Part shown: positions 12,957-54,906 of the stretch, piece by piece
Layout: every line of letters begins with the position of its first letter
Position numbering within the stretch: the stretch's first letter is position 1
From: Candidatus Caldarchaeum sp.
GTDB taxonomy: Archaea > Thermoproteota > Nitrososphaeria_A > Caldarchaeales > Caldarchaeaceae
Length of the DNA stretch: 64,000 nucleotides
Assembly (NCBI GenBank): GCA_038831915.1
Contig: JAWBKB010000003.1
Span: forward strand, 68,662-132,661
Direction of reading: 5' to 3'
Notes under the pieces: generated by a model
Seen by the model: the letters and a program-made list of their open reading frames with translations, nothing else
Database searches by the model: none
What the model was told of the DNA's origin: nothing
Program-made: the position numbers and the translations under genes

Positions 12957-12975
12957 CTGGTTGGGTGGATTTGAT

Positions 12976-13188: not shown

Positions 13189-13195
13189 ACAACGA

Positions 13196-14047: not shown

Positions 14048-14062
14048 TTATGGCTGTAACAG

Positions 14063-15010
14063 ATGGAAGAAGACGGAGTGTTGCTGGAAACGGTTCAGAA
14101 ACAGGCTGATTGTAACGTCTGCCACGAAGGCCCCGTGGTCTATCACAGAGTCTATTCAGGTGAAAAACTGTGCCGCAAATGCTTCATCAAAACATTTGAA
14201 AAAAGGGTTATCCGAACCATCGGACGCTACGGACTGCTTAGGCCCGACGACAGAATAGCCGTGGCTGTTTCAGGCGGCAAAGACAGCCTGTCGCTTCTCC
14301 ATGTGTTGAAAAAATTGGAGAAGAATTTTCCACGGGCCTCGCTTTTCGCCGTAACAGTTGACGAAGGAATTCCAGGCTACCGCGACGAAGCAATCGAATA
14401 CGTCGTCGAAACAACTCAGAGGCTTAACGTGCCTTTAGTTAAGACGTCTTTCGAGGAACTGTTCGGCATGACACTGACAAAGATGATTTCGACTTCTGTG
14501 TTCCGGGAAAGCGGGCTCGCGGCATGCACTGTTTGCGGGCCTCTGCGGAGAAGAGCCATAAACATCGCGGCGAAAAAAGCGGGCGCAACCGTGATAGCCA
14601 CCGCACACACGTTAGACGACATCGTCCAAACCTATTTTCTCAAAGTTTTCAGAGGTGAGCTGGGAAGCTCAGACGTCGGGCTCCGCTCTGAAGGGCCTGT
14701 GATTCCACGCGTGGCGCCGTTCCGCCTCACCCCGGAAAGAGAAGTGGTTTTCTACGCCTATCTCCGCAACATTCCGTTCCAGTCCCATGTCTGTCCAAAC
14801 GCGGCTGAAGCCATGAGAAACCCCATCAGACAGTTTCTCGCAGAGTTCGAGGAAAGACATCCCGGCTCGCTTTTCGCAGCTCTTCGAAGCTTTGAAAAAG
14901 CAACACGCACCACGCCGAAGAATTTGCATTACTGCCGAACCTGTGGGGAGCCGACCAGCCGTGAAACATGTAGGGTCTGCGAACTGCTGACCTCGCTCAG
15001 GATAAGTTAG
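14063..15010 (+). CDS. TtuA/NcsA-like tRNA 2-thiolation PP-loop ATPase with N- and C-terminal zinc fingers
   Basis: PP-loop SGGKDS. N-terminal CNVCH...CRKC and C-terminal CRTCG...CRVC zinc ribbons. Confidence 0.75.
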   Translation: MEEDGVLLETVQKQADCNVCHEGPVVYHRVYSGEKLCRKCFIKTFEKRVIRTIGRYGLLRPDDRIAVAVSGGKDSLSLLHVLKKLEKNFPRASLFAVTVDEGIPGYRDEAIEYVVETTQRLNVPLVKTSFEELFGMTLTKMISTSVFRESGLAACTVCGPLRRRAINIAAKKAGATVIATAHTLDDIVQTYFLKVFRGELGSSDVGLRSEGPVIPRVAPFRLTPEREVVFYAYLRNIPFQSHVCPNAAEAMRNPIRQFLAEFEERHPGSLFAALRSFEKATRTTPKNLHYCRTCGEPTSRETCRVCELLTSLRIS

Positions 15011-16188
15011 ATTTGGAAGAAGCCGAAAGTTGTGTAGGTGAACGCGATGTTCGCGACAACTAGGCCTATGCAGAGAAGAGCGGCGGCGTTGGCGATGCCC
15101 GTCATCGTCTTCTGGTTTTTGACGAATTTTTCGAGAACGGCTCGGAGCATTAAATGGCCGTCAAGCGCGTAGATCGGAAGCATGTTGAACACGGCGACTC
15201 CGATTGATACGAGCTGAAGCCAGAAAAGAGTTCGGTAAAGATTGTAAGAGCCGATTATGTCGACGCCAGGTATTCGAGACATCAAGTATGTGTCGATTTG
15301 GACTACGCCAAGTCCTCTGATGACGGAGCCAAGTGGAATTTCTCGTCCGCGAACCTCTGGGTTGGTGTCGAAAACGTATTCATCGGTTAATGTTTTCACG
15401 CGGATTTTCTCGGCGATTATGATTGATTCCGTCCGGATAGTGTAGCTGTTTACAGGCACGTCGTCGATGCTTACGATGACGTCATTGACCTTGATTCTTG
15501 CGTTTTCCTCCACCTGTAAAGCGATGAGGCCCGCTTCCTGGGGTATGAACAACCCGAACATCATCAGCAACGCGATGACGCCGACGGCTATGTTGGCGAA
15601 AGAACCAACCGCGGCGACCCGCATCTTTGCACCGGGCTTCGCGGATTTGAAAGCCTGTTCATCGGGCTCGACAAACCCGCCGGGCACCACGAAAATCATG
15701 AAGATGCCAGCCGACTTGACTGGCAGTCCTTCACGTCTCGCGATTATTCCATGCATTCCTTCATGTGTGAGAAGAACGAGGGCGAACGCGATGAATAGGT
15801 AGGGAAGATTTTCAAGCCTGATGGTGACTCCCACTATGAGCGGTATGACGATGTTCTGCCCGGTTACCTGCTCAGGCCTGAACAGATACGTGGATAAATT
15901 AGTGGCGAGCACGTAGACCGCGAAAGCCATCAACCCGAACCCGGTCGCTATCGCGGCCCGTGAAACAGCATCCCAGAAACGCGGTGCCCTCTCAGTCAAA
16001 ATGTCAAGAGGCCGTGTCACCTTCTTGAACTTCACGATTAGAAGCAGTGGATAAAGCGAATAGGATAAGCCGTTTCCCTCAGCTTCAACTCTTTCGGTTT
16101 TACGCCGTCGGTAAACCAGTCTGTCGACCGCGAAAGCAACCATCCAAGCCGCCGCGAGAACGGCGAGAACTTCGACAATCGTCACCAT
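15007..16188 (-). CDS. site-2 protease family (peptidase M50) membrane metalloprotease with PDZ-like insert
   Basis: HEGMHG zinc motif, multiple TM segments, C-terminal LDG-type motif region. Confidence 0.75.
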   Translation of the reverse strand: MVTIVEVLAVLAAAWMVAFAVDRLVYRRRKTERVEAEGNGLSYSLYPLLLIVKFKKVTRPLDILTERAPRFWDAVSRAAIATGFGLMAFAVYVLATNLSTYLFRPEQVTGQNIVIPLIVGVTIRLENLPYLFIAFALVLLTHEGMHGIIARREGLPVKSAGIFMIFVVPGGFVEPDEQAFKSAKPGAKMRVAAVGSFANIAVGVIALLMMFGLFIPQEAGLIALQVEENARIKVNDVIVSIDDVPVNSYTIRTESIIIAEKIRVKTLTDEYVFDTNPEVRGREIPLGSVIRGLGVVQIDTYLMSRIPGVDIIGSYNLYRTLFWLQLVSIGVAVFNMLPIYALDGHLMLRAVLEKFVKNQKTMTGIANAAALLCIGLVVANIAFTYTTFGFFQI

Positions 16189-16292: not shown

Positions 16293-16904
16293 ATGATGTC
16301 TCAGGTTAACGTTGCGAGAAACACTTCACGCGCGGTTTTCAAACTCGTTTTCTACATCGTCGTTTACGTGGCGGTGGCCGCTGATATTCAGTGGCTTTTC
16401 AGCGCTTTTCTCCCTGTTTACCGCGTGAACATAGCCGACTACCTCGTCTATGTTCAGATTTTGTTGTCTCTCGCGTTTGGTTATTTGATTGTGTCATTTG
16501 TAGCTGAACTGCTTTACAAGATTCTCAGCGTAAAGTATGAACATTCAGCGGCTGCGGCAGTGAGAAACCTCTTGAAAATAATTGGGCTGGGCGCATTGGC
16601 GGCGTCGATAGCCGGTGGAGTAGCCGGTGGAGCGGTTGGTCTCGCGTTGGGCGGCTTCATCGGATTGGTGATAGGATTCGCATCACAGCAGATTCTCGGA
16701 CAAGCCATAGCGGGCCTGTTCCTTCTCATCGCGCGGCCGTTCAAAATAGGCGACGCCGTAGTAATCGCCGGCGAAGAAGGAGTGGTCGAAGACATCGCAA
16801 CCCTTTTCACATCAGTAGTAAAAGCTGACGTCACGAAAGTATTGATTCCAAACAACAGCCTCATCGGCGGCAAAATCGTGTTGAAGAAAGCTCAATGGTT
16901 ATAG
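16293..16904 (+). CDS. small-conductance mechanosensitive channel (MscS family)
   Basis: Three N-terminal TM helices plus the MscS beta-domain signature FKIGDAVVIAGEEGVVEDIATLFT. Confidence 0.7.
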   Translation: MMSQVNVARNTSRAVFKLVFYIVVYVAVAADIQWLFSAFLPVYRVNIADYLVYVQILLSLAFGYLIVSFVAELLYKILSVKYEHSAAAAVRNLLKIIGLGALAASIAGGVAGGAVGLALGGFIGLVIGFASQQILGQAIAGLFLLIARPFKIGDAVVIAGEEGVVEDIATLFTSVVKADVTKVLIPNNSLIGGKIVLKKAQWL

Positions 16905-17353
16905 CGTGGATTCGTCTTCATCCGACGCCGTTGCCGTATTTCATCCGCTGCGTCGACGAAGACAAGTGGCTGACGGAGTCGCGGTCGATAGCTACTTGGC
17001 GTGCTCTCGAAATGCTGGCAAAAAACCTCATGGAGTCCACGGCCCTTCAACTACCACATCGGAGAAAAATCTACTCGAAGGAAGAAGCAGCGGCGTGGAC
17101 TATGTTCTTCTTCAAAGTAAGAGACTATAAGCCAAACCCAACCATCAACATATCGGATTTCTACACATCCACGAACCAGATAGACTACGAAAAACTTGCT
17201 TCAACGCTCGGAGTTAAACCCGACGAAGCCGCGTCATATGTCAAAACTTTCGACAAACCGCTTATGATGGCCGCTGTAGAGGAAGCTCTCCAAGCGGTAC
17301 GGCACAGTTACCAATATCGACATTTGGTCGAATTGGTGAAAGGCAGAGTTTGA
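16895..17353 (+). CDS. hypothetical protein
   Basis: 152-aa ORF overlapping the MscS gene end by 10 nt. Confidence 0.35.
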   Translation: MVIAWIRLHPTPLPYFIRCVDEDKWLTESRSIATWRALEMLAKNLMESTALQLPHRRKIYSKEEAAAWTMFFFKVRDYKPNPTINISDFYTSTNQIDYEKLASTLGVKPDEAASYVKTFDKPLMMAAVEEALQAVRHSYQYRHLVELVKGRV

Positions 17354-18649: not shown

Positions 18650-18795
18650 AGTTCAAACGCGCTCTGGATTTGGTGGTGAACAACGTAGTTGATTTGAAGC
18701 CTTTAATTACTTTGAAGCTTCCTCTCGTCGACGGTGTAAAAGGGTTCGCCGAAGCTCAGAGCTTCAGCAACCTCCGCGTAATGCTCAACCCTTGA
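18650..18795 (+). pseudogene. remnant: C-terminal ~48 codons of a zinc-type (MDR) alcohol/threonine dehydrogenase
   Basis: ...TEFKRALDLVVNNVVDLKPLITLKLPLVDGVKGFAEAQSFSNLRVMLNP* resembles the C-terminus of the MDR family (the same pattern appears in the intact paralog at 20458..21516). The upstream in-frame sequence is not ADH-like. Confidence 0.45.
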
Positions 18796-19378
18796 CAGAG
18801 GACGTTAGGTATTTCGGGTTGTCTACGAGTTTCGGCCGGCCGTTTTCCTCGACCACGAGCTTGGCGAATCCCTTTGTCTTCACGATTTCGTAGTCGTGGC
18901 CCGCGTCGAACGGGTAGGCGAAGAAGAAAACCAGTTCCTTCGAGCCTGTGTTCACTGTTCGGTGGCCCCAGCCGGGAGGAACATACACCACGGAATTCGG
19001 GGTAAGTTCCCGGGCTTCAACCACGCCGTCAGCCGTCTGCATAACTATCAATCCTTCTCCCTCAAGCCCGTAGTAGATTTCAGCCGCGGGCTTCTCGTGA
19101 AAATGTCCACGTGTCATGAAATATTAGCGGCCAACCTTTCCGGGATACATCACCGTCAACCCAAAATTAACATGTCCCATCCCACTTTCAAACGTCTTTT
19201 CATAATATTCGTAGACAACGAAGTCGCCGCGGGTTTGTAGTAGTTTCTCGACTTCATGGGTTTCGCTGAAGTATTCTTTGAGTGCTGAAAGCTTGACGAT
19301 GCGGTGGTTGGTATAGGGCTCGATTAAACGCTTGTGTAAATCAATTTTCGCGGAAAAAGTGCTCATGTTTCTCAGCAT
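18785..19378 (-). pseudogene. cupin-type glucose-6-phosphate isomerase (cPGI) interrupted by an in-frame TAA
   Basis: N-terminal ORF (19124..19378) ends ...MYPGKVGR. After the stop TAA at 19124-19126, the same frame continues as YFMTRGHFHEKP...VVYVPPGWGHRTVNTG (cupin His/Glu metal ligands). TAA sits where cPGIs have Glu (GAA). Confidence 0.6.
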
Positions 19379-19397: not shown

Positions 19398-20425
19398 TTA
19401 ATGTTTTATTGTTCGGACTGTTTTCTCGAAGACTCTGGGGTTTGCTGTGTTTTTTGGTTTTTCGCCTCTTGCGAGGGCTTCTATCGCCTCGGCAACCGCC
19501 ATATCTATTCCGATGAATGATTCGTAGGTGTATGCTCCGATGTGAGGTGTGACAACTACGTTTTCAAACTGTAGCAAGGGATGGCTTGAATCTATGTAGT
19601 CGCCTTCGACAACGTCCAGCCCTGCGTAACGGATTTTACCCGTTTTCAGAGCGTTGACCAGTGCATCGGTGTCGACGAGGCCGCCTCTCGCCGTGTTCAC
19701 AAGCATCGAGCAGGGCTTCATGAGCTCAAAGGCCTTCGCGTTCATCATGTGCCGTGTTTCCGGTGTTTGGGGCGTGTGAAGAGACACGATGTCCGATTCC
19801 TTGAGCAGGGTTTCAAAATCTGTTAAAACCACGTCGAGGTCTTTCACGGTTTCGGGGCTGATAAATGGGTCGTATGCGAGAACTTTGGCTTTGAACCCTT
19901 TGCTGAGAATTTCAGCGACTCTTTTGCCGATGTTTCCGAGACCAATGATACCTATTGTTTTACCCTTTAACTCGGGCCCGATGAACTTTGTTCTTTCACG
20001 CCATCGGTTTTCCCGAACCGCGATAAAGGCCTGTGAAACCATTCGGTAGGCGTCGAGCATTAAAGCAACAGCCAGCTCCGCCACAGCCTCTCTTTCAACC
20101 TCGCCGGGAACACGTGTAACAATCACTCCATGCTCCGTGGCTGCTTCCTAATCGATGTTATCCACTCCGATGCCGTTCCGCACCAACAACACAATATCAG
20201 AGTTTTTTCAAAAAATTCTCTGTCATAACGCGGGTTGGTGCTTACGACTGCAACATGATATCCTGCGAGAACAGCTGCGAGCTCACTGCCGCGGATGTCA
20301 CGTGGAACGTTGAGCCGCGTAACTTCGCCGAGACGGTTCAAACACGTGAACACATCAGTATATGCTCCAAAAGTCAAAGAATTTACAACAGCTATTTTCA
20401 GCTTCATAACCGTGTATATCTGCAT
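19398..20425 (-). pseudogene. D-isomer-specific 2-hydroxyacid dehydrogenase (glyoxylate reductase/PGDH family) with frameshift plus in-frame TAG
   Basis: N-terminal 100-aa ORF, then a 1-nt frame change in a homopolymer (plus-strand T6 at about 20203-20208). The correct frame reads ...KNSDIVLLVRNGIGVDNID, then TAG at 20148-20150, then EAATEHGVIVTRVPG... and the NAD-binding GIIGLGNIGKRVA domain. Confidence 0.6.
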
Positions 20426-28781: not shown

Positions 28782-29228
28782 TTATTTCTGCGCGAGTTTT
28801 TCAGGGTCGATTCTTTCACCGTAGCCTGGAAGCTTGTATTTCTCGTAGCGATGTTGGTATTTCAAATATTTCAAAGCATTTTCCCTACGTGGGTCTATGC
28901 ATTCGTTCGCCACAATCCAATCCTCCACCGATTTCTCAATAACAACAACACGTAAACCGTCTGTTGTTCCGCATTCTTTTTTGATGCGGTCTTCCACCTC
29001 CCGCGTATTGCTGCCGTGTGCGTCGACGACCACTATGACCACGCCGTTCATGCTGGCGGCCTTGACCGCTCTTGCCGCCTTGCTGTCAAACGGCCCTTTA
29101 ATGGATTTGACAATAATTTCAAGCCTCAAAGCCTCCGTGTTCTTAAGTTTCTTTATGAGCTTTTCAAAGGATAATTTGCCATACGTGTCTTCGCACAAAA
29201 TTGTCTTCTTCATATAATTGTAATCCAT
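28782..29228 (-). CDS. small Toprim-like/RloB-like protein, partner of the adjacent AAA ATPase
   Basis: 148 aa. N-terminal KKTILCEDTYGKLSF (acidic Glu motif like Toprim/RloB ilvvcEGekTE) and a second acidic strand VVIVVVDAHG. Overlaps the 3' end of the ATPase gene on the same strand. Confidence 0.4.
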   Translation of the reverse strand: MDYNYMKKTILCEDTYGKLSFEKLIKKLKNTEALRLEIIVKSIKGPFDSKAARAVKAASMNGVVIVVVDAHGSNTREVEDRIKKECGTTDGLRVVVIEKSVEDWIVANECIDPRRENALKYLKYQHRYEKYKLPGYGERIDPEKLAQK

Positions 29229-30611
29229 AGAGCCACATTTCGCTCGGTGTCAGCCCCTTCTCTTTCATCCATCGCCTCACCAGTTCGAGGTTTTCGACAC
29301 GTTTGACAACGCTGCCCTCAGGCGTCCTCTCGACCAACAGCAAATTTTCCAAACCCGCGACATCTACGACGACGGGCGAATGTGTAGCAATCAAGCACTG
29401 AACGCCGGAGTTTTTCAGCTCATTCACAACATATTCTAGAATTTCGCTGTGGAGAGAGTTTTCTATCTCGTCTATGCAGAGTATCGAAGGCTTGCTCTCT
29501 AGTGCTGTTAAGATGTGGAGAACCTTGTAGAATCCGTCGGGCAAGCTTGGCGAATGTATCTTAGCACCATAAAGCCGATCTCTTACAGAAGGAAAAACAC
29601 GACCATCGGATGTCAGCTCAATTTTCAGCACAAAATCAGGAAAAAGATTTTTCAAAGCATTCTCGATCCTCTCAGGCAAAACACCCGACAGAAACATCCG
29701 AGCAATCTGTGCGTTAAGTGTTTCACCTCTCTCAGATATGGTATGTGAAACGACCAAAATACTTGGTTCCCGCACCTTCCCCAAGTCAGGGTGGCGGATC
29801 AACAAGACTCTATTGAAAAATAGCCTTAAACTACTGATAACATATTGCAGCATGGACGTCCTTTCCCTTTTAAAGTAAGGGTTAATGAGCTTGATTCTTC
29901 CAAGACGAGGTTTCTCTCCTTCAAGAGTGAAGATTTATTATTACGCTAGTTAATGCAATCTTTCCGTCTACCTCGCTGTCGGTGATGATCAAGGACGGCG
30001 AAAATATTTCGGAAAATTAACGTATCGGCAAAATAGTGACAGGTGTTTTGGAAAGGATATGGGTTTGTGTGTCCCTAGTTATGTCTTCGAGTTTCACCCC
30101 ATGTCTTCTTCGCTGAAGAATTTTTCTCGTGTGGTGTTCATGTGTTTTTCGATAAATCGTAATTCCCCAACAACTCGAAGAGTATCTCCTTCTCTGCTGA
30201 TTGTTGCAATTCCGTGTAGCTTGATCTTTTCCATGATGGGTTTTACAGTGCCTTCCGCGCTAGTGAAAACGACTTCATACGATGCAGTGTAGTTTTCTTG
30301 ACATTCGAATTCGAGCTCGAAAGTAATGGGTTTTGTTTCATCATTGCCGTAAACGATGTTTTTGTATGACCACCATTCGAGATGAGGGATGTAAGGTGAT
30401 GTAATTTCGCCGACGGCCTTTTTTCAAGAATTTGAAAGCTTCTAAAAGACTTGTCTTGCCTGAGGCGTTGGGGGCCCACGAGAACGTTTAGCCCGGCGTA
30501 CAGCTCAACTACCGTGTCTTTGAGAGATTTCCAGTTCTGTAGTCGTATCATCCTAGGCTTCATCTGTTCTACGCCCAAACATGGCCCCGATGGATATAAG
30601 TGTTGGCACAA
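29164..30611 (-). pseudogene. AAA/ABC-type ATPase (AAA_21/RloA/OLD-like) disrupted by multiple frameshifts and a stop
   Basis: Intact C-terminal 229 codons carry Walker B LCIDEIENSLH and H-loop LIATHSP. The N-terminal part reads MIRLQNW...LNVLVGP, then a frame change at a G5/C5 run (about 30470) gives NASGKTSLLEAFKFLKK (Walker A). A second change at a T6/A6 run (about 30419-30424) gives AVGEITSPYIPHLEWWSYK...EEDMG*. The ~390 nt between has stops in all frames. Confidence 0.6.
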
Positions 30612-31690: not shown

Positions 31691-31724
31691 CATCATAAAC
31701 ACCCTCAACAACCATTTAAACGGA

Positions 31725-31796
31725 GCCGGGGTGGCCGAGCAGCGAGGCGGCGGCCTGCAGAGCCGCTCTACAGGGGTGCAAATCCCCTCCCCGGCT
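31725..31796 (+). tRNA. tRNA-Cys (anticodon GCA), no encoded CCA
   Basis: Cloverleaf read by eye. Acceptor GCCGGGG/CCCCGGC (7 bp) with discriminator U. Anticodon stem GCGGC/GCCGC with loop CUGCAGA (GCA). 5-nt variable loop. T-stem AGGGG/CCCCU with loop UGCAAAU. Confidence 0.7.
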
Positions 31797-31977
31797 TTAA
31801 CGGAGCGCTTTGGATTTGTGCCGGCACATTTCGATTGTTCATAAAACGTATCATCTGCTAATTCGTTGATTAGCGGGGTATGCAGATAGCCTTTGTTAGG
31901 GATCCCGAGCAACATGAGCTATTGCAGATGCCTCGATGGGGTAAGACGACTTCACGAATTTTACAGATTATCAAAGA

Positions 31978-35341: not shown

Positions 35342-37165
35342 ATGGTTTCAGCCCATGGCTATGCGAACTGTATCGCTTGGGTTGATTTAACCAACAAGAA
35401 AATCGAATACCGTGAAGTCGATGAAGAAGATGCGAGGAAGTTCATCGGCGGCAGAGGTCTGGGTGGAAGAATTATTTTGAAGAACGAGGTTGGGAAAGAC
35501 CCTCTCGCCCCTAAAAAGGTCATCGCGGTTTTGAACGGCCTGCTCACGGGAACAACCGTGCCGATGAGCGGAAGAATCGTCGCGGTTGCACGTTCACCTC
35601 TCACTGGTGTATTTGCGGACACTCACGCCGGCGGATGGGCCGGCGCAGCTATGAAATGGGCCGAGTTCGACGCCGTGGTCATGCATGGTGCAAGCGACCA
35701 GCCCGTGTACCTGCTTGTGAAAAACGAGACGGTTTCGATCGAGCCTGCAGATGGGCTGTGGGGTAAAACACCTGAGGAAGCATATCATCTGCTTGTGCAG
35801 AAATACGGAAAAGCTGTTCAGTTCTATGGAATAGGACCTGCTGGAGAAAACCTCGTTAAATTCGCAAACCTTATGCATTTTGGAGAAGGCGCGCTGGGAA
35901 GGGCATCCGGCCGAACAGGATTAGGAGCTGTATTTGGCTCGAAGAAAGTCAAGGCCCTCGTAATAATCGGCGACGAAAAAACATGCCCAAGCCCGCCAAC
36001 CCCGAAGAATACGAAAGAATCCGTGCGTTGAAGAACATTCTCGACAGCGCTGTGACAGGTCCGAGGAAAGGCGGATTATCTGTTTACGGAACAGCTGTTC
36101 TGGTGAACGTGGTCAACTAAATCGGAGCATGGCCGACCCGCAACGCCAAAGACACTCAGTTCGAATTCGCCTACTATCTTTCAGGTGAAAACTTGCGGAG
36201 CACGATTTTGAAGGAAACACCAACGTGCCACCCCTGTCCCGTCGCGTGCAAACGTGAAGTCGAAGTGTATGACGGCAAGCTGAAACACAAATCCGAAGGC
36301 CCTGAATTCGAAAGCATCTGGGCCCTCAGAGCTATGATAGGTCTGGGTCACATCGAAGCCGTTTCATACCTCAACTATCTCGCAAACCTCTACGGCTTAC
36401 ACAATCGAGCTCGGCAACACACTGGCCGTCGCAGCCGAAGCGAACGAAAAAGGACTTCTCAAAGACGGTGTGAAATGGGGAGACGTCGACCGCTTCGCTG
36501 AACTTGTCAAACAAATTGCCCACCGTGAAGGCGAGCTGGGAAACATTCTCGCAGAAGGAGGTACGAAAGCCGCGAAGCTGTTAGGCGACCCAGACCTTTC
36601 CATGTCCGTGAAAGGAATGAGCATCCCCGCATACGACCCTCGCGGCCTCAAAGGATTCGCTCTCGCTTACAGCGTTTCGCCACGTGGTGTATGCCATCTT
36701 CGAGCCTACACACCGGCTTCGGAAATACTCGGCATCCCCTACAAAACAGACCCCCTCGCAACAGAAGGAAAAGTCGACCTTGTCATGGTTCTCGAAAGAT
36801 TGTTCGCTTTCAGCGACAGCCTCCACATGTGCAAATTCAGCAGCTTCGCCCTCGGGCCCGAAGACTACGCCGACCTATTCGCAACATTCACAGGAATCGA
36901 AATGACGCTCGACGAATTGTTCAAAGTCGGCGAAAGAATCATCACACAAGAGAGATACTTCAACCAACTGCACCGAATAACAAGAAAAGACGACAGACTT
37001 CCCAAACGATTCATGAAAGAACTTGCTTCGAGCGGGCCATCAAAAGGCCACGTCATCGACGAAGCCACTTTGAACAGCCTACTCGACGAATACTACCGCA
37101 AACACGGATGGAACCCCGACGGAACAGTTCCAGCCGAAATACTACGTCAACTCGCCATAGCCTAA
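35342..37165 (+). pseudogene. aor: tungsten-containing aldehyde:ferredoxin oxidoreductase (AOR family) disrupted by two indels and an in-frame TAA
   Basis: Three ORFs (35342..36031, 36193..36501, 36470..37165) cover the AOR N-terminal, middle and C-terminal domains, with a total span of 608 codons. Lesions are a frame change in an A6 run at 35976-35981 (GDEK|NMPKPANPEEYERIRALKN...), TAA at 36118-36120 within ...LVNVVN*IGAWPTRN, and a 2-nt change in a CACA tract at about 36400 (NLYGL|DTIELGNTLAV...). Confidence 0.7.
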
Positions 37166-37185: not shown

Positions 37186-37950
37186 CTACGTCTTTCTCGA
37201 TGAACAAACCGGACATTTCGGGGATTTCGCAACCGGTAGCAGGAAAAATTCCAAATTCAACCCGTTGAAGACCAGAAGCTTTCCAACCAGAGGTTTGCCG
37301 GCACCCGTCATGATCTTAATCGTTTCCAACGCTTCGAGAGAGCCGATGGCACCTGGCACCGGCCCGACCACCGGAATAACTTCTTCAACCGTGGGAGTTT
37401 GAGGAATCAAACACCGCAGACAAGGCCCCTTACCCGGTATTATCGTCATCAGCCTCCCTTCAAACCCATACACCGCGGCATGAACAAACGGAACACCAGC
37501 CTGAACACATGCCTCGTTCAACAGAAACCTCGTCTCAAAATTATCCAGCCCATCAACAACCACGTCTACATCCTTCAACAGCTCAGATACATTATCTACC
37601 GACAACCTTAGTTGCAGGGCTTCCACGACAATTTCAGAGTTGATTGAACGGAGTCGACGCGCCGCTAAATCCACTTTCGAACAGCCCAAATCATGTTCCG
37701 AATAAGGCAGTTGACGGTTAAGATTGCTTAATTCGAGCACGCCGTCCTCGACGAGCCTAATACGGCCGACACCCGCCGCGGCCAAATACATCGCCGCAAC
37801 ACCACCCAGCCCTCCAACACCCACAACAAGCACCGTCGACCTCTTCAACCGAACTTGTCCGTCCACACCAATCTCGGGAACACGAAGCTGCCTGTCATAT
37901 CTTTCGAGCTCCCTACCGCTCAGCACACCAAAAAAGAACAAACACCTCAA
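37186..37950 (-). CDS. moeB: E1-like adenylyltransferase (MoeB/ThiF/TtuC family) with C-terminal CxxC...CxxC zinc motif
   Basis: ThiF Rossmann motif VLVVGVGGLGGVAAMYLAAAGVGRIRLVEDGVLELSNLNRQ. C-terminal CLRC...CPVC. Start abuts the stop of the MoaD-like gene. Confidence 0.75.
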   Translation of the reverse strand: MRCLFFFGVLSGRELERYDRQLRVPEIGVDGQVRLKRSTVLVVGVGGLGGVAAMYLAAAGVGRIRLVEDGVLELSNLNRQLPYSEHDLGCSKVDLAARRLRSINSEIVVEALQLRLSVDNVSELLKDVDVVVDGLDNFETRFLLNEACVQAGVPFVHAAVYGFEGRLMTIIPGKGPCLRCLIPQTPTVEEVIPVVGPVPGAIGSLEALETIKIMTGAGKPLVGKLLVFNGLNLEFFLLPVAKSPKCPVCSSRKT

Positions 37951-38250
37951 TTAAAAACAGCCGCCGGCAACAGGCGGAACCAACGCCACTTCATCCCCTT
38001 CGTTCAGAACAGTCGCCAACCCGTCGTGAAAATCGATGTCCCTGCCGTTCATAAAGATCTTGAACATCTTCTTGGGTGAGCCAGATTCATCGAGCACGGT
38101 TTCCACAAACTTTTGACCAAACTGTTTCGAAAGAATTTCCAGCAGAAACCTTACATCACCATGCTGTGAAAGCTCCACAAAAATTTTTCCAGATCCACCC
38201 AAAGCATCGCGAGCAGAAGCGTAAGCCTTGACGAAAACCCGCGCCATCAC
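37951..38250 (-). CDS. moaD: MoaD/ThiS-family ubiquitin-like sulfur carrier with a C-terminal Cys-Phe extension after the Gly-Gly
   Basis: 99 aa. The VFVKAYASARDALG...MNGRDIDFHDGLATVLNEGDEVALVPPVAGG pattern matches MoaD. The ORF ends ...AGGCF*, read directly from the reverse complement of 37951-37980. Confidence 0.6.
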   Translation of the reverse strand: MMARVFVKAYASARDALGGSGKIFVELSQHGDVRFLLEILSKQFGQKFVETVLDESGSPKKMFKIFMNGRDIDFHDGLATVLNEGDEVALVPPVAGGCF

Positions 38251-38341: not shown

Positions 38342-39178
38342 TTGGCGACCAAACTGAGAAAGGACTTCATCAAGCTCCTCGAAGAAGACCGAGAATTCAG
38401 ATACACAGTAGCGGGATACCTCGGCCTTTCAGAGATACTGAAAAGACTTGACACAGTCCAAGACCAGATAAGAGGATTACAGGAAGCGCAGAACAAGTTA
38501 TGGGAAGAAGTTCGCAGTCTAAGGGAAGGACAGAACAAGCTATGGGAAGAAGTGAGGAGCCTAAGAGAGGGGCAGAACAAGCTATGGGAGGAAGTACGCA
38601 GTCTAAGGGAAGGACAGAACAAGCTATGGGAAGAAGTGAGGAGCCTAAGAGAGGGGCAGAACAAGCTATGGGAGGAAGTTAGGAGCTTGAGAGAAGGCCA
38701 GAACAGTCTTTGGGAAGAGGTGAAAAATCTCCGTGCTGAGCAGATGAAGCTGCGTAACTATGTTATTTCTGGGTTTACTGAGCTTCGTTCGGCTTTGGGG
38801 GTGACTTTCGAGATGCATGCCGCAGCTTATTTGGAGCTTGTTTTGGATGAAATGGGTTATTCCTCAGCGAAAATTAATCGGAAGTTGTTTGTTCACGACG
38901 GCGAGGTTGTTGAGGTGAATCTTTTCTGTGAAGAGCCGTTGGTTGTGGGAGAGGTGACTGTTGCTGTGAGGAGCGAGGAAGACGCTGTTAGGGAGGTTGC
39001 GAAACTTGTTGAACGTGTCGATGTGGTGGTGTCGAAGTTTGGTAGGAAGCCTGATCTCACGGTTTTGTCGGTTGGCCGTGCTTCGCCTGAGGCGGCTGAA
39101 AAGCTTCGAGCCGAAGCTGAAAAACACGGTGTTAGGCTTGTTTTAGGCAGAGAAATTGAGGAATTTCTAAGCGTCTAG
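38342..39178 (+). CDS. coiled-coil protein with six tandem 14-aa repeats (LWEEVRSLREGQNK) and a C-terminal alpha/beta domain of unknown function
   Basis: 278-aa ORF. The repeat block is encoded by six to seven 42-nt tandem repeats at about 38484-38718. Confidence 0.55.
   Translation: MATKLRKDFIKLLEEDREFRYTVAGYLGLSEILKRLDTVQDQIRGLQEAQNKLWEEVRSLREGQNKLWEEVRSLREGQNKLWEEVRSLREGQNKLWEEVRSLREGQNKLWEEVRSLREGQNSLWEEVKNLRAEQMKLRNYVISGFTELRSALGVTFEMHAAAYLELVLDEMGYSSAKINRKLFVHDGEVVEVNLFCEEPLVVGEVTVAVRSEEDAVREVAKLVERVDVVVSKFGRKPDLTVLSVGRASPEAAEKLRAEAEKHGVRLVLGREIEEFLSV
38484..38718 (+). repeat. in-frame tandem repeat, 42-nt unit x ~6 (alternating two variants, i.e. an 84-nt higher-order repeat)
   Basis: gcagaacaagctatgggaagaagtgaggagcctaagagaggg alternating with gcagaacaagctatgggaggaagtacgcagtctaagggaagga, inside the CDS 38342..39178. 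Confidence 0.8.
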
Positions 39179-39307
39179 CAGGATTTTTGATGTTGGCTGG
39201 CGATTTCGCGTTTGGGCGGATGTTTCGGTTTTGCTGTGATTCCGCTAAGCATTACATTGTAGTTATGCGATGTCAGTTTAGTTGTTGTGTTGTGTTTGTG
39301 ACTGGTT

Positions 39308-40966
39308 TTATTTTTTGAGTATTTGTATGATGTGTTTGGCTGCGATGTATCCGAAGGTGCATGCTGGGCCGGGTGTTGAGCCTGGGCCGGGATATGTTCC
39401 TCCGAATATCGTGGCTGCGGTGTTTCCTGCGGCGTATATCCCGGGTATTGGGTGGCCGTCTTGATGTATGACTTGGGCGTTTTCGTTGGTGAGTAGCCCG
39501 CCGCATGTGCCAAGCTCTCCGGGATATACGGCTGTTGCGTAGAAAGGCGGGTGTGTTAGTGGGCCGAGGTTGGGGTTGGGTTTAACCGCCGGGTCGCTGT
39601 AGAAACGGTCGTACGCGCTTTCACCCCTGTGATAGTCTTCGTCCACTCCTTTCCGAGCCATTTCGTTGAACCGCTGACCTGTTTTCAGCAATCCTTTTTC
39701 GTCGACATCTATTTTTCGAGCGAGTTCTTCGAGGGAGTTGGCACGTGTCAAATATTGTGGGCTTGTTGCTTTTTCCGGTGTTCGTCTTGGCATGAGTGTT
39801 CCGAAGAGGTATTTGGAGCGGTGTTTGTTGTCGATGATGAGCCATGCGGGGATCGCTGCTGATGTTTTGCGTTGGTGGTTGTAGATGTCTCGCCAGCAGT
39901 CGACGTATGAAGCTGATTCGTTCATGAATCTTTCGCCGTTCTGGTCGACGATGAAGCCGAATGGTAGGGAGCGTTCGGCGAGGACAAAGGATGCACGTCC
40001 ATCGGGAGTTATTGCGACGGGGCCTCCCCATGCCTTATCCATCAAAGCGGTTTTGGCGCCGATTTCCATGGCGGCTTTGATAGCGTCACCTGTGTTGCCC
40101 GAAGCTCCCACCGTCCATTCCTAACTCGTCGGCTTGAGAAGAAACTGTTCCCGCATTTCTTGACTTTGTTCGAAGCCTCCAGCGGCGAGCAGAACGCCGC
40201 CTCGGGCCTTCACCGTCACGGGTTTTCCTTCGTGTAACACCACGGCGCCGACCACTCTGTCGTTTTCAACCAGCAGGCGTTCAAGCGGTGACTCGAGCCA
40301 GATTTTCACATTTTTCTGCAGACAGAGATAGAGCAGTTGACCGATGAGTGAGTTGCCGAGTGTGACGAGCCGGCGGCCAAGAAGCCTTCCGCCGACCAGC
40401 CGAAGCCCGAGCCGAAGCATGGTCGCCATGCCTGCCGAGCTCCGGGCCAAATACATCTTCGATGCCTCGGTTATGTAAATCGGTATGGGCGGAGCCCCGG
40501 GATATCGACGGAGTTTGTCACGCCATTTTCCGAGCTTGTTTACGTCGAAAGCGACTCCTTCGATTGCTCTTCCAAAAACGGAGCCTCCGGGTTTTTCAGG
40601 GTAGTAGTCAGGATATTCTACTGATGCTCTCCATCTGAAGCCGAGGTCTTCGAGGAACTTGACCATTTCAGGGCCGTTGGTGAGGTAGGCGTGGAATTTT
40701 TCCGGCGTCGTTGCTTCGCCTACTTCCGGGACAACGTGTTTGAGATATGTCATGGCTTCTTCGTAAGAATCTTTGAGACCAGCTCGAGCTGAAACATGAT
40801 TGTTGGGTATCCAGAGGCCTCCCCCGGACATCGCGCTCGAGCCGCCCACCAGCTCGGTCTTCTCAACAACTAATACTTCATAGCCGGCGTGACGAATTGT
40901 CAAGGCGCCTGTCAACGCGGCCGCTCCGCTGCCTACAACTAACGCATCGACCGATACATGTTCCAT
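39308..40966 (-). pseudogene. FAD-dependent oxidoreductase (fumarate reductase/3-ketosteroid dehydrogenase flavoprotein-like) interrupted by an in-frame TAG
   Basis: N-terminal ORF (40121..40966) has the FAD-binding motif VVGSGAAALTGA and ends ...FLLKPTS. TAG at 40121-40123 is in frame with the downstream ORF, which begins EWT(V)GASGNTGDAIKAAMEIGAK and ends ...YAAGNTAATIFGGTYPGPGSTPG. Confidence 0.6.
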
Positions 40967-41621
40967 GGCTCAATTATTATGTGGACTCATATTTGTTGCA
41001 TGTAGCCCGGGCTATATCTCGGCATATTGCGGTGTCTTCTGCTTGGGTAATGCTTATTATTGTCGGGCCTTGTGTGGTGATGGGTTGCAGGCTGAAGATG
41101 CTGAAGTTAGAAAGCTGGCGGAGTTGAAATCGTTTCTCGAACAAAGGCTTTCGGAGCTCGAAAAAGAAGCTGAAAACATCAAATCGTTGCTGGAAATCAT
41201 CGATAGGGAGCTTGTGGCGAAAAGCTTCAAAAAAGCTCAGCCACCCGCCGAACCTTCGGAGAAAGAACCATCAGCTCTCAGGATGATACGCAGCCGCTCT
41301 GGAACGCTTCTCGCCACGATGTCGCTGAAAGAACGTGAAGCCCGAATCGTTTTCAACCCCGAAATCAGAGTAACACAGGACATGCGGCCTTTTTCATCGT
41401 TTCTTCTCCGGAAGGTGCTGGATTCAATGCGTGAAGCTGACTTGCAGAAGGTTGTGGAGGGTAAGCTTGACCAGTCAAATGTTTTGACTTACGAAGTTAT
41501 TTACGACGGCGACGTGGCCCGTGAACTCGTGGTGAAAAACTACCGCGAAGAAGCAAGGCTGAGAGAAATAGTTAATTCTGTCAAATGGACGCTCGACACA
41601 ATCGCGTCGAGCACCCGGTAA
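40965..41621 (+). CDS. hypothetical coiled-coil protein
   Basis: 218-aa ORF. The true start is probably an internal Met. No family recognised. Confidence 0.35.
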   Translation: MAQLLCGLIFVACSPGYISAYCGVFCLGNAYYCRALCGDGLQAEDAEVRKLAELKSFLEQRLSELEKEAENIKSLLEIIDRELVAKSFKKAQPPAEPSEKEPSALRMIRSRSGTLLATMSLKEREARIVFNPEIRVTQDMRPFSSFLLRKVLDSMREADLQKVVEGKLDQSNVLTYEVIYDGDVARELVVKNYREEARLREIVNSVKWTLDTIASSTR

Positions 41622-50770: not shown

Positions 50771-51582
50771 AAACATTCGAAATCCTCGAAAACATTCGGA
50801 ACGAAAGAAGACGGGGCTCGACAGGCCTGGCGTACATGGTTCTCGACGCATACCGAACGCTGGCTTTTGAAAGCCGCGACATCGCCGCCGACGTCTCCAA
50901 ACTATCATACATGATTGAAAACCTACGGCCTGCTATGCCTCTCATAGCTCGGTTCAGCCGCGAAATCGTGAAAAGACTGTCGAAGCCAACCCCTGAAGAG
51001 CTTCTACACGCCGTCGAAATAGTTCAGAACACGTATCGCAAAATGCTGGATGAACTTGTTAAGGTAGCTGTGTCGGCTTTAACGGACGTTAGGTGTCTTG
51101 CTACTTTGAGCCATAGCGGCTCTGTTGAAGCCGTTCTGAAAAATCATAGTGGTTTGAGGAGGTTGTTTGTTCTGGAGTCGAGGCCTCTCCGTGAAGGGTT
51201 GCTTCTGGCCTCATCGGTTTCGAAACACGTGGATGTCGAGGTGTTTGTCGACGCGGCGATGGCTTACGCGGTTGAAGAAGCTGACGCGGTCGTGGTTGGT
51301 GCAGACGCTGTGTTCGCCGACGGCTCTTTTTCGGGAAAAATCGGTGTAAGGCCTTTGGCGATGGCCGCTAAGGAATTGGGGAAGAGTTTCTACGTGTTGG
51401 CTGACACGTGGAAGTTTTCCGAGAAATTTGTCAACGAATTCGGGCCTCCGAATGACGTTGCCGCTGAGCATGCGGCGAGAAACCCTGTCTTCGAAAAAGT
51501 CGACGCAAAATTCGTGACATGGTTTCTGACGGAGAAAAAAGCCACAGAACCTCGCTCCATCCACTCCCTAATTACAGAATGA
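50767..51582 (+). CDS. eIF-2B alpha/beta/delta-family protein (ribose-1,5-bisphosphate/MTR-1-P isomerase-like)
   Basis: IF-2B family core TLSHSGSVEAVL...LESRPLREG...VGADAVFADGSFSGKIG. Confidence 0.6.
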   Translation: MKTFEILENIRNERRRGSTGLAYMVLDAYRTLAFESRDIAADVSKLSYMIENLRPAMPLIARFSREIVKRLSKPTPEELLHAVEIVQNTYRKMLDELVKVAVSALTDVRCLATLSHSGSVEAVLKNHSGLRRLFVLESRPLREGLLLASSVSKHVDVEVFVDAAMAYAVEEADAVVVGADAVFADGSFSGKIGVRPLAMAAKELGKSFYVLADTWKFSEKFVNEFGPPNDVAAEHAARNPVFEKVDAKFVTWFLTEKKATEPRSIHSLITE

Positions 51583-52976
51583 GGAAAGGGAGGTAAATCA
51601 ATGAGGTGAACCCGACGACGGGGACGCCGATTTTGAAGAACCGCCAAAACGATATCGTCAGCCGGTATTTTCTTTCAAGCACTTCGAGAACTATGATGTT
51701 TGAAGCTGCTCCGAGGATTGTGAGGCTTCCGGCGAGGGTTGAATAGGTTGCCAGGCCGAGCCAGAGGTTTTCGTCAAGCCCTATCACGCCGTTTTCCTTC
51801 ATGTATTGGATGAAGAGCTTGGTGAAGGGGACGTTCCTGAGTATTTGGCTGAAGCCGAGAGAAGCACCCATGATGAGCAACAGTCCTTGAAAACCGTTGA
51901 ACCCGTTCACGGCGGCGAAAGCGATAACTTTCTGCAGAAGGCCCGAACGCCAGACACCTTCCATGGTTACGAACATCGCGATGAAAAACAGTATCGTGCC
52001 AAGGTCTATCCGGGATGCGACGTCCCTGGGGTTGGTTACGAAAGGCCAGACAGCTGCCGCGACGATGAACGGAATAAGCCCGCGGCTTGAAACATGCGGC
52101 AATCCCAACGCCGCCAACACGTCGTTGAAAAACAAAGGCGCTACAGCGACACCGCCGCCTAACAAAGCGATGTAAGCATCTCTACGGAAAACAATAGCTT
52201 CGGGAGGAACCGCGACAGCCGCGACGGGTCTCCGCTTCACGTCGTAGATTTTGGCGATGTAAAGGCCGAGTAGCGTTAGTGAGATTAACGTGGGAATCGC
52301 GAGCTTTGCCAGGAAGGAGATGAACGGTGATTTAATTCCTGACTGAACAGCTGTCATCATGTTTTGCGGGTTGCCGAGCGGCGTCATCACGGAGCCGATT
52401 GTGATGGCGTGGCAGGGAAGCATGAAAGATGCTTCGTATTTGTCGCCGATTGCTTTTCCGACGAGAACGGCTATCGCGAGCCCTAGTAACGCGACGGTGT
52501 CGTTGACGAAGAAAGCCGCCATCAACCCGAAGACCAGGGATGAGCCGACGACCATCAACTTGGTGTTGCTGAAATATGATTAGAGCGAGTGATGCGATGT
52601 AGTTGAGAAGACCCGACGATTCCGCTATGCTGACCAAAGCGAACATTCCGATGAGGAAGAAGACGACGAAGTCGATGTAGTTGACTGCTTCATCAACATC
52701 AACGAGGCCCGTCAAAAACTTGAGAAACATCGCGGCCATCATGATAGACCAGACAGGGATGTGGGGAAATTGGTCTCGTAGAAGCAGGCCGCCGAGAAGA
52801 AACGCCGCCACTATAAACCCGCTAACTTCGGAATTCATCAGAAACATCCGTAAACTATGTTTATGGAAAAAAGCGATGGGAAAGAGTTTTCCACGGACTT
52901 GGAAAACCATTAATAGCCGTGTCAAGCCCATCAAACAAGTATGCAGACCGCTGAACACGAACATGAACACGGTCAT
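51572..52976 (-). pseudogene. ArsB/NhaD/CitMHS-superfamily permease split by a 1-nt frameshift
   Basis: N-terminal ORF ...SIAESSGLLNYIASLALII. The frame changes at about 52568-52582 (atcatatttcag) and continues as SNTKLMVVGSSLVFG...GNPQN in the 328-aa ORF. Confidence 0.5.
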
Positions 52977-54281: not shown

Positions 54282-54313
54282 ACAGTTTTAAAGCAAACAA
54301 ATAGGTCAAACAC

Positions 54314-54906
54314 GTGCAAGACATCGCCTTCGAAATAATCAAATCAACCATTGCACTGTTCGTCATCGTGGACCCTGTAGGAGCCCTGCCTTTCGTCGCA
54401 TCCTTTGCGAGGGGCTCGACAGACAGGAAAGAAAGAAAATCATCGACCAATCCGTGTTGGCTGGAACTTTCCTGCTACTGGTTTTCTCGATAAGTGGACA
54501 TGGAATTCTTTCGTTTCTCGGCATTTCGGTTGCGAGCTTCACCGTTGCAGGCGGTCTTCTACTTCTTGTTCTCGCGTTTAGAATAGTTCAAGGAGGTGAA
54601 GGATGGCAGACCCGGGGTTCCAGCCCCGGTGTCTTCCCCCTCGCCTTTCCCCTTCTCGCAGGCCCCGGCGCAATCATCACCGTCATCTTCTCAATAAACT
54701 CGCTGGGAATTCCCTATTCGGTGGCACCCGTCGTCATAGTGGTGACGACTACTTGGCTGGTTCTCCTCGCAATCGACCGCGTGCTGGTCATTATCGGCGA
54801 ATCGGGAGCGGACGCAGTAGCACGAATAATGTCTGTCTTCGTCGCGGCCATCGGAATACAGTACGTCGTCACAGGGTTGATGGAATCCGCCCAACTACTG
54901 AGATGA
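54314..54906 (+). pseudogene. MarC-family (UPF0056) membrane protein with a 1-nt frameshift in an A-run
   Basis: GTG start. N-terminal IALFVIVDPVGALPFVASF (MarC signature). The frame is lost at the A4 run 54436-54439 (...TDRKERK|). The correct frame resumes as IIDQSVLAGTFLLLVFSISG... (ORF 54454..54906). Confidence 0.5.

Follow-up and report, generated by a model that had tools for sequence, protein, structure and literature searches.

A tungsten aldehyde:ferredoxin oxidoreductase locus that is very probably a fixed unitary pseudogene in a hot-spring Caldarchaeum

RESULTS

Layout of the AOR locus

The window, by which we mean the whole 64-kb stretch of Candidatus Caldarchaeum DNA that was analyzed, contains on its forward strand an aldehyde:ferredoxin oxidoreductase (AOR) gene of 1824 nt (35342-37165), with an ATG at 35342 and a stop codon at 37163-37165, that is read in frame 2, then in frame 1 (35980-36399), and then in frame 2 again. 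The features of the locus, with lesions defined by codon alignment with the intact orthologs on contigs L011, L013, L014, and L015, are as follows.

35342..35980, + strand: putative AOR pseudogene, segment 1; frame 2 mod 3; N-terminal AFOR_N domain (Pfam 3-198/199, E 3.8e-65)
35976..35981, + strand: lesion 1, 1-nt deletion, A7 to A6; GAA AAA AAC (E-K-N) expected; shifts reading to the -1 frame
35980..36399 (420 nt), + strand: putative AOR pseudogene, segment 2; frame 1 mod 3; start of AFOR_C (Pfam 5-127/385, E 4.4e-30)
36024/36025, + strand: site of a 6-nt deletion that keeps the frame; the two missing codons read "EA" in the sister species
36118..36120, + strand: lesion 2, in-frame TAA from GAA; near-invariant Glu in a VNEIGAWPTRN context
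36399/36400, + strand: lesion 3, 2-nt deletion; near-invariant Asp codon GAC reduced to C (TTA|C ACA ATC); returns reading to frame 2 mod 3
36400/36401..37165, + strand: putative AOR pseudogene, segment 3; frame 2 mod 3; remainder of AFOR_C (Pfam 129-385/385, E 4.3e-85)
37186..37950, - strand: ThiF/MoeB-like E1 gene, intact, convergent with AOR (Pfam ThiF, E 8e-74)
37951..38250, - strand: ThiS/MoaD-like sulfur-carrier gene, a conserved AOR neighbor

A preliminary description of this DNA had placed both outer thirds of the gene in frame 2 mod 3 and a middle part of about 415 nt in another frame; the translations and the open reading frame list agree with this layout, and the middle part is the 420-nt segment at 35980-36399. 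Pfam coverage runs on over the three segments without a gap except for a single profile position (128), lost at the second junction, and such a contiguous match to AFOR_N and AFOR_C is far beyond chance. The middle segment is itself AOR-like (AFOR_C positions 5-127, E 4.4e-30), and its translation, aligned to the Pyrococcus furiosus AOR (1AOR), contains the CxxCxxxC [4Fe-4S] ligand triad as CHPCPVAC. While the AFOR_N domain (PF02730 3-198/199, E 3.8e-65) is present, AFOR_C does not form one polypeptide with it and lies in two pieces in different frames, the first with the TAA. From the native start, the only long product is one of 229 amino acids (35342-36031), of which the last 17 are an out-of-frame tail.

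Family identity and intact orthologs

The conceptual AOR translation aligns end to end with Haloferax volcanii WOR83 (9q1t; E 6e-140) and P. furiosus AOR (1aor; E 1e-130), and scores lower against FOR (1e-95) and WOR5 (5e-46). These alignments, together with the AFOR_N and AFOR_C matches, are in keeping with the earlier naming of the gene as an aldehyde:ferredoxin oxidoreductase of the tungsten type. Its closest intact homologs, from metagenome-assembled genomes (MAGs) of Caldarchaeales (formerly Aigarchaeota) and Nitrososphaeria, are 58 to 82% identical, and a search of 5.8 billion clustered proteins gave no intact one above 82% identity. We also found an intact 610-amino-acid ortholog, 82% identical, at the same locus in a sister species represented by two MAGs (L011 and L012/L013; GCA_026413695.1 is a MAG of this species), where the gene (L011, L012) sits between a 481-amino-acid membrane protein and ThiF/ThiS. 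The orthologs on L014 and L015 are likewise intact. When the repaired AOR protein was searched against genome contigs, matches were found in four relatives, and tblastn with four AOR-family proteins detected no second AOR copy in the 64-kb window.

The domain order of the AOR family (PF02730 plus PF01314), the CxxCxxxC...C ligands, and the second Dxx..C motif are all recognizable in the window AOR. All four [4Fe-4S] cysteine codons (CHPCPVAC; SLHMCKF) align to the P. furiosus AOR cysteines and lie 3' of the frameshift and the stop. The 1AOR structure reportedly has two pterin-binding DxxGL(C/D)x motifs; in the window AOR, the first lacks its Asp as a result of the 2-nt deletion, and the second reads DSLHMCK, compared to DSLDMCK in relatives. 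The gene thus differs from the family in a frame broken twice, an in-frame TAA, the destroyed Asp of the first pterin motif, and the replacement of several near-invariant residues, and it is a relic of the AOR family, not a working member.

Four lesions relative to intact orthologs

Codon alignment resolves each of the three disruptions that had been proposed from the window sequence. The entry into the second frame, described as an indel at the A6 run (35976-35981), is a 1-nt deletion; at these codons the orthologs have GAG AAG GAC/AAT, and the protein alignment reads GDEK(N/D)MPKP. The in-frame TAA at 36118-36120 is a GAA-to-TAA change: the sister species has GAA at this site with identical flanks, and the lost Glu aligns with a Glu of P. 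furiosus AOR in IINEN (about residue 251, counted along the 1AOR alignment). The exit, first seen as a 2-nt change in a CACA tract near 36400, is a 2-nt deletion at TTA|CACA (36399/36400), and the Asp it removes aligns with the second Asp of P. furiosus AOR DELGLDT (about residue 343, likewise an alignment count).

The count of three lesions was correct as far as it went but overlooked a fourth change, the 6-nt in-frame deletion at 36024/36025. This deletion is unique to the window AOR among 13 aligned sequences, and both residues are kept in 12 of the 12 closest homologs; it is not necessarily disabling by itself, since distant AORs tolerate indels in this region. The two indels had also been called compensating, which holds arithmetically (-1 and -2 sum to -3, and the C-terminal third regains its frame) but not functionally, because the 140 codons in between are unreadable in the original frame and carry the TAA. 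We rejected the idea that the indel pair is a selected feature: the same frame is regained by chance one time in three, and the intervening stretch is unreadable and contains the TAA.

The lesions recur in 10 independent assemblies

Lesion 1 sits in an A6 homopolymer, a classic error site, so one explanation for the broken frame is that the AOR is intact in the organism and that the indels and the stop are sequencing or assembly errors, such as homopolymer miscalls. However, the lesion-bearing sequence was found in 10 independent assemblies, 6 of them NCBI MAGs and 4 of them Logan assemblies of different SRA runs. In comparisons made on consensus assemblies, all 1824 nt of the AOR are identical in L001-L009, and L010 is identical over its 1172 nt, which cover all three lesions, while the flanks differ by 0 to 0.3% among the assemblies. 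Those MAGs whose origin could be followed were assembled with SPAdes, one sample at a time, from Illumina HiSeq reads of the spring GXS (Gongxiaoshe, Tengchong), separately from the Logan assemblies of individual SRA runs; the four that could be dated were sampled in 2017-09, 2019-07, 2020-07, and 2021-01 and are classified as g__Caldarchaeum. Elsewhere, the window contains long uninterrupted open reading frames of up to 1032 amino acids. In addition, the MAGs differ from one another at a nonsense single-nucleotide polymorphism (SNP; position 19126) in another gene of the window, which encodes a cupin-type glucose-6-phosphate isomerase (GPI); this shows that the assemblies report true allelic states. 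Ten identical independent assemblies, the dated ones from 2017 to 2021, mean that the AOR lesions are no artifact, as had been judged likely from the number of lesions; the error explanation is effectively refuted, and we leave it hardly any probability at all. At the level of consensus assemblies, the AOR allele is fixed, being identical in every one from this population over at least 3.3 years.

Amino acid change is raised in the window AOR

We polarized only amino acid changes, since synonymous sites are saturated relative to the outgroups (pS 0.8 to 0.9). With two outgroups, 33 changes in AOR were derived in the window lineage compared to 12 in the sister lineage, and with one outgroup the numbers were 58 and 26 (binomial p = 6e-4). 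The excess is spread across all three segments, with 14 window-derived and 5 sister-derived changes in the N-terminal segment. At columns where no more than 2 of 120 homologs deviate, the window AOR also carries 6 substitutions, with 2 in the next highest sequence, and the radical substitutions at almost invariant positions include P67L, G330R, G546R, and N59K. About twice as many amino acid changes as in the sister, together with the six at near-invariant columns, argue that selection on AOR has been relaxed, although this signal is not fully separable from a lineage-specific rate increase; ThiS is accelerated as well, and ThiF is not.

The AOR dN/dS between window and sister is 0.088 overall, with a dS of about 1.4 that is near saturation. 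This low value indicates that most of the divergence accrued under purifying selection, and it makes any estimate of age crude. A rough estimate suggests neutral drift of the AOR over about 0.02 substitutions per site, or about 3% of the time since the sister split. This drift would be far older than the diversity of the present population (at most 0.3% divergence).

Neither recoding nor reuse of a fragment explains the pattern well

A full-length AOR could in principle still be made by programmed recoding. Ribosomes or RNA polymerase would have to slip by -1 in the A-run, the TAA would have to be read through, and a +1 shift would be needed at TTA-CACA. If tRNA-Lys slipped by -1 in the P site on A-AAA-A, the exact native GDEKNMPKP would result. 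However, one gene would need three separate events, and the near-invariant Asp would be missing even after a +1 shift at lesion 3. Selenocysteine and pyrrolysine use UGA and UAG, not UAA. Archaeal stop readthrough is confined to the insertion of these two residues (PMC1616953). A member of the Thermoproteota is known to use programmed -1 frameshifting on A-AAA-AAT (PMC1616953; reviewed in PMC8211752), and the window AOR resembles Saccharolobus solfataricus fucA1 in having an A-rich slip site between two open reading frames in the 0 and -1 frames. In contrast to fucA1, its heptamer (A-AAA-ACA, from the zero-frame codons GAA-AAA-ACA) does not fit the X-XXY-YYZ motif (PMC1616953), and two further lesions lie downstream. 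None of the lesions is conserved, as every ortholog in the alignment has a continuous reading frame and no A-run, and the surplus of radical changes at invariant positions also speaks against a protein that is still made in full. We consider recoding of this gene very improbable.

Alternatively, a fragment could have been kept for a new role, either the 229-amino-acid AFOR_N product or a C-terminal piece with an internal start. The native AOR start and the AT-rich region upstream of it are intact, gene callers predict open reading frames of 229 and 231 to 262 amino acids, and the region is without SNPs among the assemblies. This lack of SNPs is uninformative, however, because the diversity of the population is so low (0 to 0.3%). 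The excess of changes in the N-terminal segment is as strong as elsewhere (14 compared to 5), with P67L and N59K among the near-invariant sites hit, and from general structural knowledge of 1AOR, the AFOR_N domain takes part in binding the cofactor only jointly with domains 2 and 3. Retention of a fragment thus seems very improbable too, if slightly less so than recoding.

The neighboring ThiF and ThiS genes

The ThiF neighbor of AOR is also found on L011, L014, and L024, and the ThiS neighbor on these contigs and on L015. In ThiF, derived changes number 18 in the window and 19 in the sister lineage, showing no acceleration, while ThiS has 17 derived amino acid changes in the window compared to 4 in the sister. 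The window ThiS ends in ...PPVAGGCF, compared to the usual ...PPVAGG, with an identical 3' end in L001-L009; the additional Cys-Phe is due to a small deletion that removed the native TGA. QbsE has such a GG-CF tail, which a JAMM protease is thought to remove (PMC5925218), so the ThiS tail is no proof of inactivation.

On L024, AOR is preceded by two MoeA genes and a PBP-like gene. P0014, a candidate AOR paralog, was rejected as such; it belongs to another MAG and informs only the conservation of the neighborhood. The aor operon of Aromatoleum aromaticum contains the MoaD-like genes aorD/aorE (PMC6365974), and the AOR clade studied here is similar in that it consistently occurs with ThiF/MoeB-like and ThiS/MoaD-like genes. 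The arrangement differs in that the ThiF/ThiS pair of the window is convergent with AOR and not cotranscribed with it, and the window ThiS has gained the Cys-Phe tail.

DISCUSSION

A fixed unitary pseudogene as the preferred reading

We conclude, with a probability of roughly 0.93, that the locus is a fixed unitary (nonduplicated, positional) pseudogene of a single-subunit tungsten-type AOR in the Caldarchaeum species of the GXS spring. The preliminary description had called the AOR genuinely dead, and this reading is supported by the lesions in 10 assemblies, the AOR-like middle segment, the intact positional ortholog of the sister, and the excess of amino acid change. In this pseudogene, the ancestor would have had a 610-codon open reading frame as in the sister, in the arrangement membrane protein > AOR > < ThiF < ThiS. 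The homopolymer of lesion 1 would itself have arisen by substitutions (GAG AAG GAC to GAA AAA AAC), followed by the 1-nt deletion; lesion 2 would be a G-to-T nonsense mutation at the near-invariant Glu, and lesion 3 would have removed, by its 2-nt deletion, the near-invariant Asp of the first DxxGL(C/D)x-type pterin motif. The 6-nt in-frame deletion and the radical substitutions at almost invariant positions would represent further decay. Because the core that would bind the Fe-S cluster and carry out catalysis is frameshifted and contains a stop, the locus is predicted to make no AOR enzyme.

The loss was probably tolerated through aerobic respiration, as COX3 is present, and through an intact NAD(P)-type aldehyde dehydrogenase encoded in the same window, and it probably took place amid a more general inactivation of genes in this lineage. 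In its intact syntenic ortholog, several disabling lesions, raised amino acid rate, and fixed allele, the locus is like other prokaryotic unitary pseudogenes and is ordinary among them, being particular only in its 2017-2021 time series and in the six other broken genes nearby.

On its own, the AOR result is of little weight, and its use is to correct the functional inventory of this Caldarchaeum species, to which automated AFOR_N/AFOR_C annotation of the fragments would wrongly assign a tungsten AOR. The correction is relevant because tungstoenzymes underlie ecological inference in the Caldarchaeales, as in two studies (PMC9246946; PMC11094006); the accessible text of the second (PMC11094006) gives no per-MAG aor calls.

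Other broken genes in the window

The window also holds an intact Mo-oxidoreductase, two MoeA genes, FdhD, the aldehyde dehydrogenase, and COX3, and Rfam and ARAGORN detected in it only a tRNA-Cys, which has no bearing on the AOR locus. Besides AOR, six genes are broken: the cupin-type GPI, a D-2-hydroxyacid dehydrogenase, an AAA_21 ATPase, a 554-amino-acid FAD flavoprotein, a CitMHS permease, and MarC. This brings the count to at least 7 of about 65 genes, AOR included. An MscS-like pair (16293-16904 and 16895-17353), possibly a frameshifted gene, was left uncounted, its second open reading frame having no Pfam match, and a split nitroreductase in the MAG JAWBLR (L022) was left out as an artifact of an N-run scaffold gap. 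Two of the broken genes could be compared with the sister species, and both are intact there. A more far-fetched possibility is that some of those with a single lesion are still expressed by recoding, a reading that is highly improbable for AOR itself.

As a tentative proposal, to which we give somewhat less than even odds, a wave of gene inactivation may be under way across the whole lineage of this free-living hot-spring archaeon, with the dead AOR as the earliest loss still visible. If it is true, the wave could be directed away from fermentative sugar and aldehyde metabolism, and if the whole 1.5-Mb genome has such a load (about 10%), the GXS series would capture reductive or specializing evolution as it happens in a nonsymbiotic archaeon. 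Seven broken genes in 64 kb, one of them polymorphic in a dated series, are of more interest than AOR alone, and they would make the GXS population a convenient natural system in which to measure the rates of pseudogene origin and fixation in thermophilic archaea. The polymorphic one is GPI, whose nonsense allele (GAA/TAA) is still segregating between samples taken from the same spring five months apart.

The AOR gene carries four lesions

The tungsten aldehyde:ferredoxin oxidoreductase (AOR) gene occupies the following position:

35342-37165, + strand: AOR gene, with ATG at its start and TAA at its end

Translated from the ATG without a change of frame, the gene gives 213 AOR-like residues, a stretch of nonsense containing many stops, and AOR-like sequence again through to the end. 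The middle part is readable one frame over, from 35980 to 36399, where its sole interruption is a TAA at 36118-36120. The three conceptual pieces match Pfam AFOR_N (positions 3-198 of 199, E = 4e-65), AFOR_C (5-127 of 385, E = 4e-30), and AFOR_C (129-385 of 385, E = 4e-85), respectively, and this coverage is contiguous, with one profile position missing, at the second junction. Thus, the preliminary description and its coordinates were correct: the gene consists of three segments in switching frames, the middle one being AOR-like and containing an in-frame TAA.

We defined the lesions by protein alignment and by codon alignment to four orthologous genes. First, the A7 run of GAA AAA AAC (Glu-Lys-Asn) has been shortened by one A to A6 (35976-35981); since the orthologs read GAG AAG GAC/AAT at this site, the homopolymer arose in the window lineage before slipping. 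Second, the GAA codon for the near-invariant Glu of VNEIGAWPTRN now reads TAA, with flanking codons identical to those of the sister species. Third, the GA of the Asp codon GAC in YG(L/M)DTIELGN is gone, at 36399|36400. All three had been described previously, but a fourth had been missed: a 6-nt in-frame deletion at 36024/36025, which removes two residues found in 12 of the 12 closest homologs. In an alignment to the Pyrococcus furiosus AOR structure (1aor), the lost Asp corresponds, by hand count, to the second Asp of DELGLDT (about residue 343), a stretch that we take to be the first of the two pterin-binding DxxGL(C/D)x motifs, and the three clustered Fe-S cysteines fall within the out-of-frame middle segment. 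The two frame-changing indels (-1 and -2 nt) had been called compensating, and the last third does regain the original frame, but this brings no functional rescue, and a return to frame has a 1-in-3 chance of occurring.

The same lesions recur in separate assemblies

The truncated 229-aa product has exact matches recorded for 13 contigs, 10 of which we retrieved (loci L001 to L010). They come from six NCBI MAGs (GCA_038885715, 038832125, 038831565, 038827665, 038885335, and 038828585) and four Logan assemblies, each of a different run (SRR27730012, 15, 17, and 32). Nine match the window at all 1824 nt of the AOR gene; the tenth covers 1172 nt, all identical to the window, every lesion included. 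The flanks of these contigs differ by 0 to 0.3%, showing that each is a consensus in its own right and that all come from one population. Four of the MAGs are g__Caldarchaeum bins from the Gongxiaoshe (GXS) hot spring, sampled in 2017-09, 2019-07, 2020-07, and 2021-01 (Qi et al. 2024 supplementary table, PMC11094006), and the samples were read on an Illumina HiSeq 4000 and each assembled separately with SPAdes. Together with the lack of any intact AOR protein more than 82% identical among 5.8 billion clustered proteins, this recurrence excludes, for practical purposes, a sequencing or assembly artefact as the source of the lesions.

The broken gene is a positional ortholog of intact AOR genes

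With the conceptually repaired AOR as query, those 5.8 billion clustered proteins yielded full-length homologs, the best of which (82% identity) is from a "Candidatus Caldarchaeum sp." MAG, while others, at 58 to 76% identity, are from Aigarchaeota and Nitrososphaeria MAGs. In the sister-species MAGs (L011, L012/L013), an intact 610-aa AOR is flanked, as in the window, by a 481-aa membrane protein on one side and by convergent ThiF- and ThiS-like genes on the other. The order AOR > < ThiF < ThiS is kept in two further relatives, L014 (77% identity) and L024 (64%); a third, L015, also carries the ThiS-like gene, and L024 has two MoeA genes and a PBP-like gene directly upstream of AOR. This shared neighborhood makes the window gene the positional ortholog, a unitary pseudogene rather than a decaying duplicate; no second AOR-family gene was found in the 64-kb window.

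We also observed a change in the adjoining ThiS-like gene:

37951-38250, - strand: ThiS/MoaD-like gene, ending in PPVAGGCF versus PPVAGG in three orthologs

Its native TGA has been removed by a small deletion, and it has 17 derived amino acid changes versus 4 in the sister lineage. A GG-CF tail has a precedent in QbsE, from which a JAMM protease presumably removes it (PMC5925218).

Constraint on the AOR gene has been relaxed

Between the window and the sister, AOR dN/dS is 0.088 at a dS of about 1.4, showing that most of the divergence predates inactivation. When changes were polarized, the window lineage had 33 derived amino acid changes versus 12 in the sister when two outgroups were used and 58 versus 26 (binomial P = 6e-4) when one was used, whereas the adjacent ThiF had 18 versus 19, so a general rate increase does not account for the AOR excess. 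When 120 full-length homologs were aligned, the window AOR proved to have six substitutions at columns where no more than two sequences deviate (N59K, P67L, Y323F, G330R, A451V, and G546R); every other homolog has at most two of this kind. The excess is distributed across all three segments, the N-terminal one included, which argues against retention of the N-terminal fragment as a working product. Amounting to ~32 amino acid changes over ~1394 nonsynonymous sites, the excess suggests, as a rough figure, that the gene has gained ~0.02 neutral substitutions per site after losing constraint; drift of that extent would be expected, again roughly, to yield about as many lesions as are seen here (three small indels and one nonsense mutation).

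It is very improbable that the gene is read through by programmed recoding. At the first lesion, the native sequence would be recovered by a -1 slip in the P site on A-AAA-A, and fucA1 of S. solfataricus provides a documented case of programmed -1 frameshifting, on A-AAA-AAT (PMC1616953; review PMC8211752). However, the zero-frame heptamer here is A-AAA-ACA, every ortholog lacks the interruption, and the gene has decayed at invariant sites. In addition, a TAA and a second shift lie downstream, and that second shift would still skip the near-invariant Asp.

The preliminary judgment that an artefact was unlikely and the AOR genuinely dead is thus supported by the shared lesions of the ten retrieved assemblies, the relaxed selection, and the intact sister ortholog. 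On this sequence evidence, the locus is a real and fixed unitary pseudogene with multiple lesions, the remnant of an AOR-type tungstoenzyme gene in a Caldarchaeum species.

Retained functions may make the loss tolerable

The window retains an intact molybdopterin oxidoreductase with Fe-S and NrfD partners:

2155-14047, - strand: molybdopterin-oxidoreductase module, intact, with 1032-aa catalytic subunit, 4Fe-4S subunit, NrfD, rhodanese, MoeA-PBP_like fusion, second MoeA, and FdhD

This oxidoreductase, the two MoeA genes, and FdhD show that pterin-cofactor machinery is kept for other enzymes despite the loss of AOR. Also intact are a 501-aa NAD(P)-type aldehyde dehydrogenase, which would provide an oxygen-tolerant aldehyde-oxidizing enzyme, and cytochrome oxidase subunit III; the host appears to respire oxygen. 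AOR-type enzymes are oxygen sensitive and sparse in Caldarchaeales outside Wolframiiraptoraceae (PMC9246946). The loss of AOR may be tolerated thanks to the retained pterin machinery, the aldehyde dehydrogenase, and oxygen respiration.

Six other genes in the window are broken

An AOR pseudogene is an ordinary kind of object, and its wider interest is limited to the density of broken genes nearby and to the dated series of samples from a population where GPI, one of the broken genes, is still segregating. Pfam matches to fragments, and single full-length matches to conceptual repairs, identified six broken genes besides AOR in the 64 kb:

18785-19378, - strand: cupin-type glucose-6-phosphate isomerase (GPI), with a single in-frame TAA (19124-19126) at the conserved Glu of PGKVGxEYFMT.GHFH
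19398-20419, - strand: D-isomer 2-hydroxyacid dehydrogenase, with a frameshift in T6GA6 / TTTTTTGAAAAAAC (about 20195-20210) and an in-frame TAG (20148-20150)
29164-30550, - strand: AAA_21 (AbiEii-like) ATPase, heavily degraded, with Walker A split over two frames and several frame changes and stops
39308-40966, - strand: 554-aa FAD_binding_2 flavoprotein, split by a single in-frame TAG (40121-40123)
51572-52850, - strand: CitMHS-family permease, with a frameshift at about 52560 and N-terminal profile positions 10-73 and C-terminal positions 80-314 in different frames
54305-54906, + strand: MarC-family membrane protein, with a frameshift at about 54427-54445 within GGAAAGAAAGAAAATC

Those open to comparison recur in other MAGs and runs. 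The stop in GPI is polymorphic: the MAG JAWBLR (GXS, 2019-12; L019) has GAA, giving an intact 193-aa gene, as its sole difference from the window in 8963 nt, and TAA is found in JAWBKM (2019-07) and one Logan assembly. The repaired dehydrogenase gives full-length 2-Hacid_dh and 2-Hacid_dh_C matches, and its broken sequence is common to L017 to L019. The ATPase remnant, common to L001 to L006, adjoins tRNA-Cys (31724-31797), an HTH protein, and a DNA methylase, neighbors that suggest the locus may be a decaying mobile or defense island. The sister ortholog of the flavoprotein (L011, 554 aa) is intact, with Lys (presumably an AAG codon) at the site of the TAG, and the remainder of the protein aligns closely to it; the TAG is present in L001 to L003. 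The gene tables of these three loci call no gene over the region (about 13921-15828, equivalent to window 39178-41085) despite two long ORFs. After repair, the permease gives one continuous match and MarC matches profile positions 3-201 of 203; L021 to L023 are identical to the window across both genes. An apparent extra split gene in one MAG was discarded as an N-run scaffold gap.

Two further regions were observed:

16293-17353, + strand: region with an MscS-like 203-aa ORF that stops just after the beta-domain and shares 10 nt with a 152-aa ORF that is in a different frame and lacks a Pfam match, possibly another frameshifted gene
38342-39178, + strand: coiled-coil ORF with ~84-nt tandem repeats (about 38488-38723), whose copy number varies between MAGs, the ORF having 278 aa in the window and 306 or 250 aa in others
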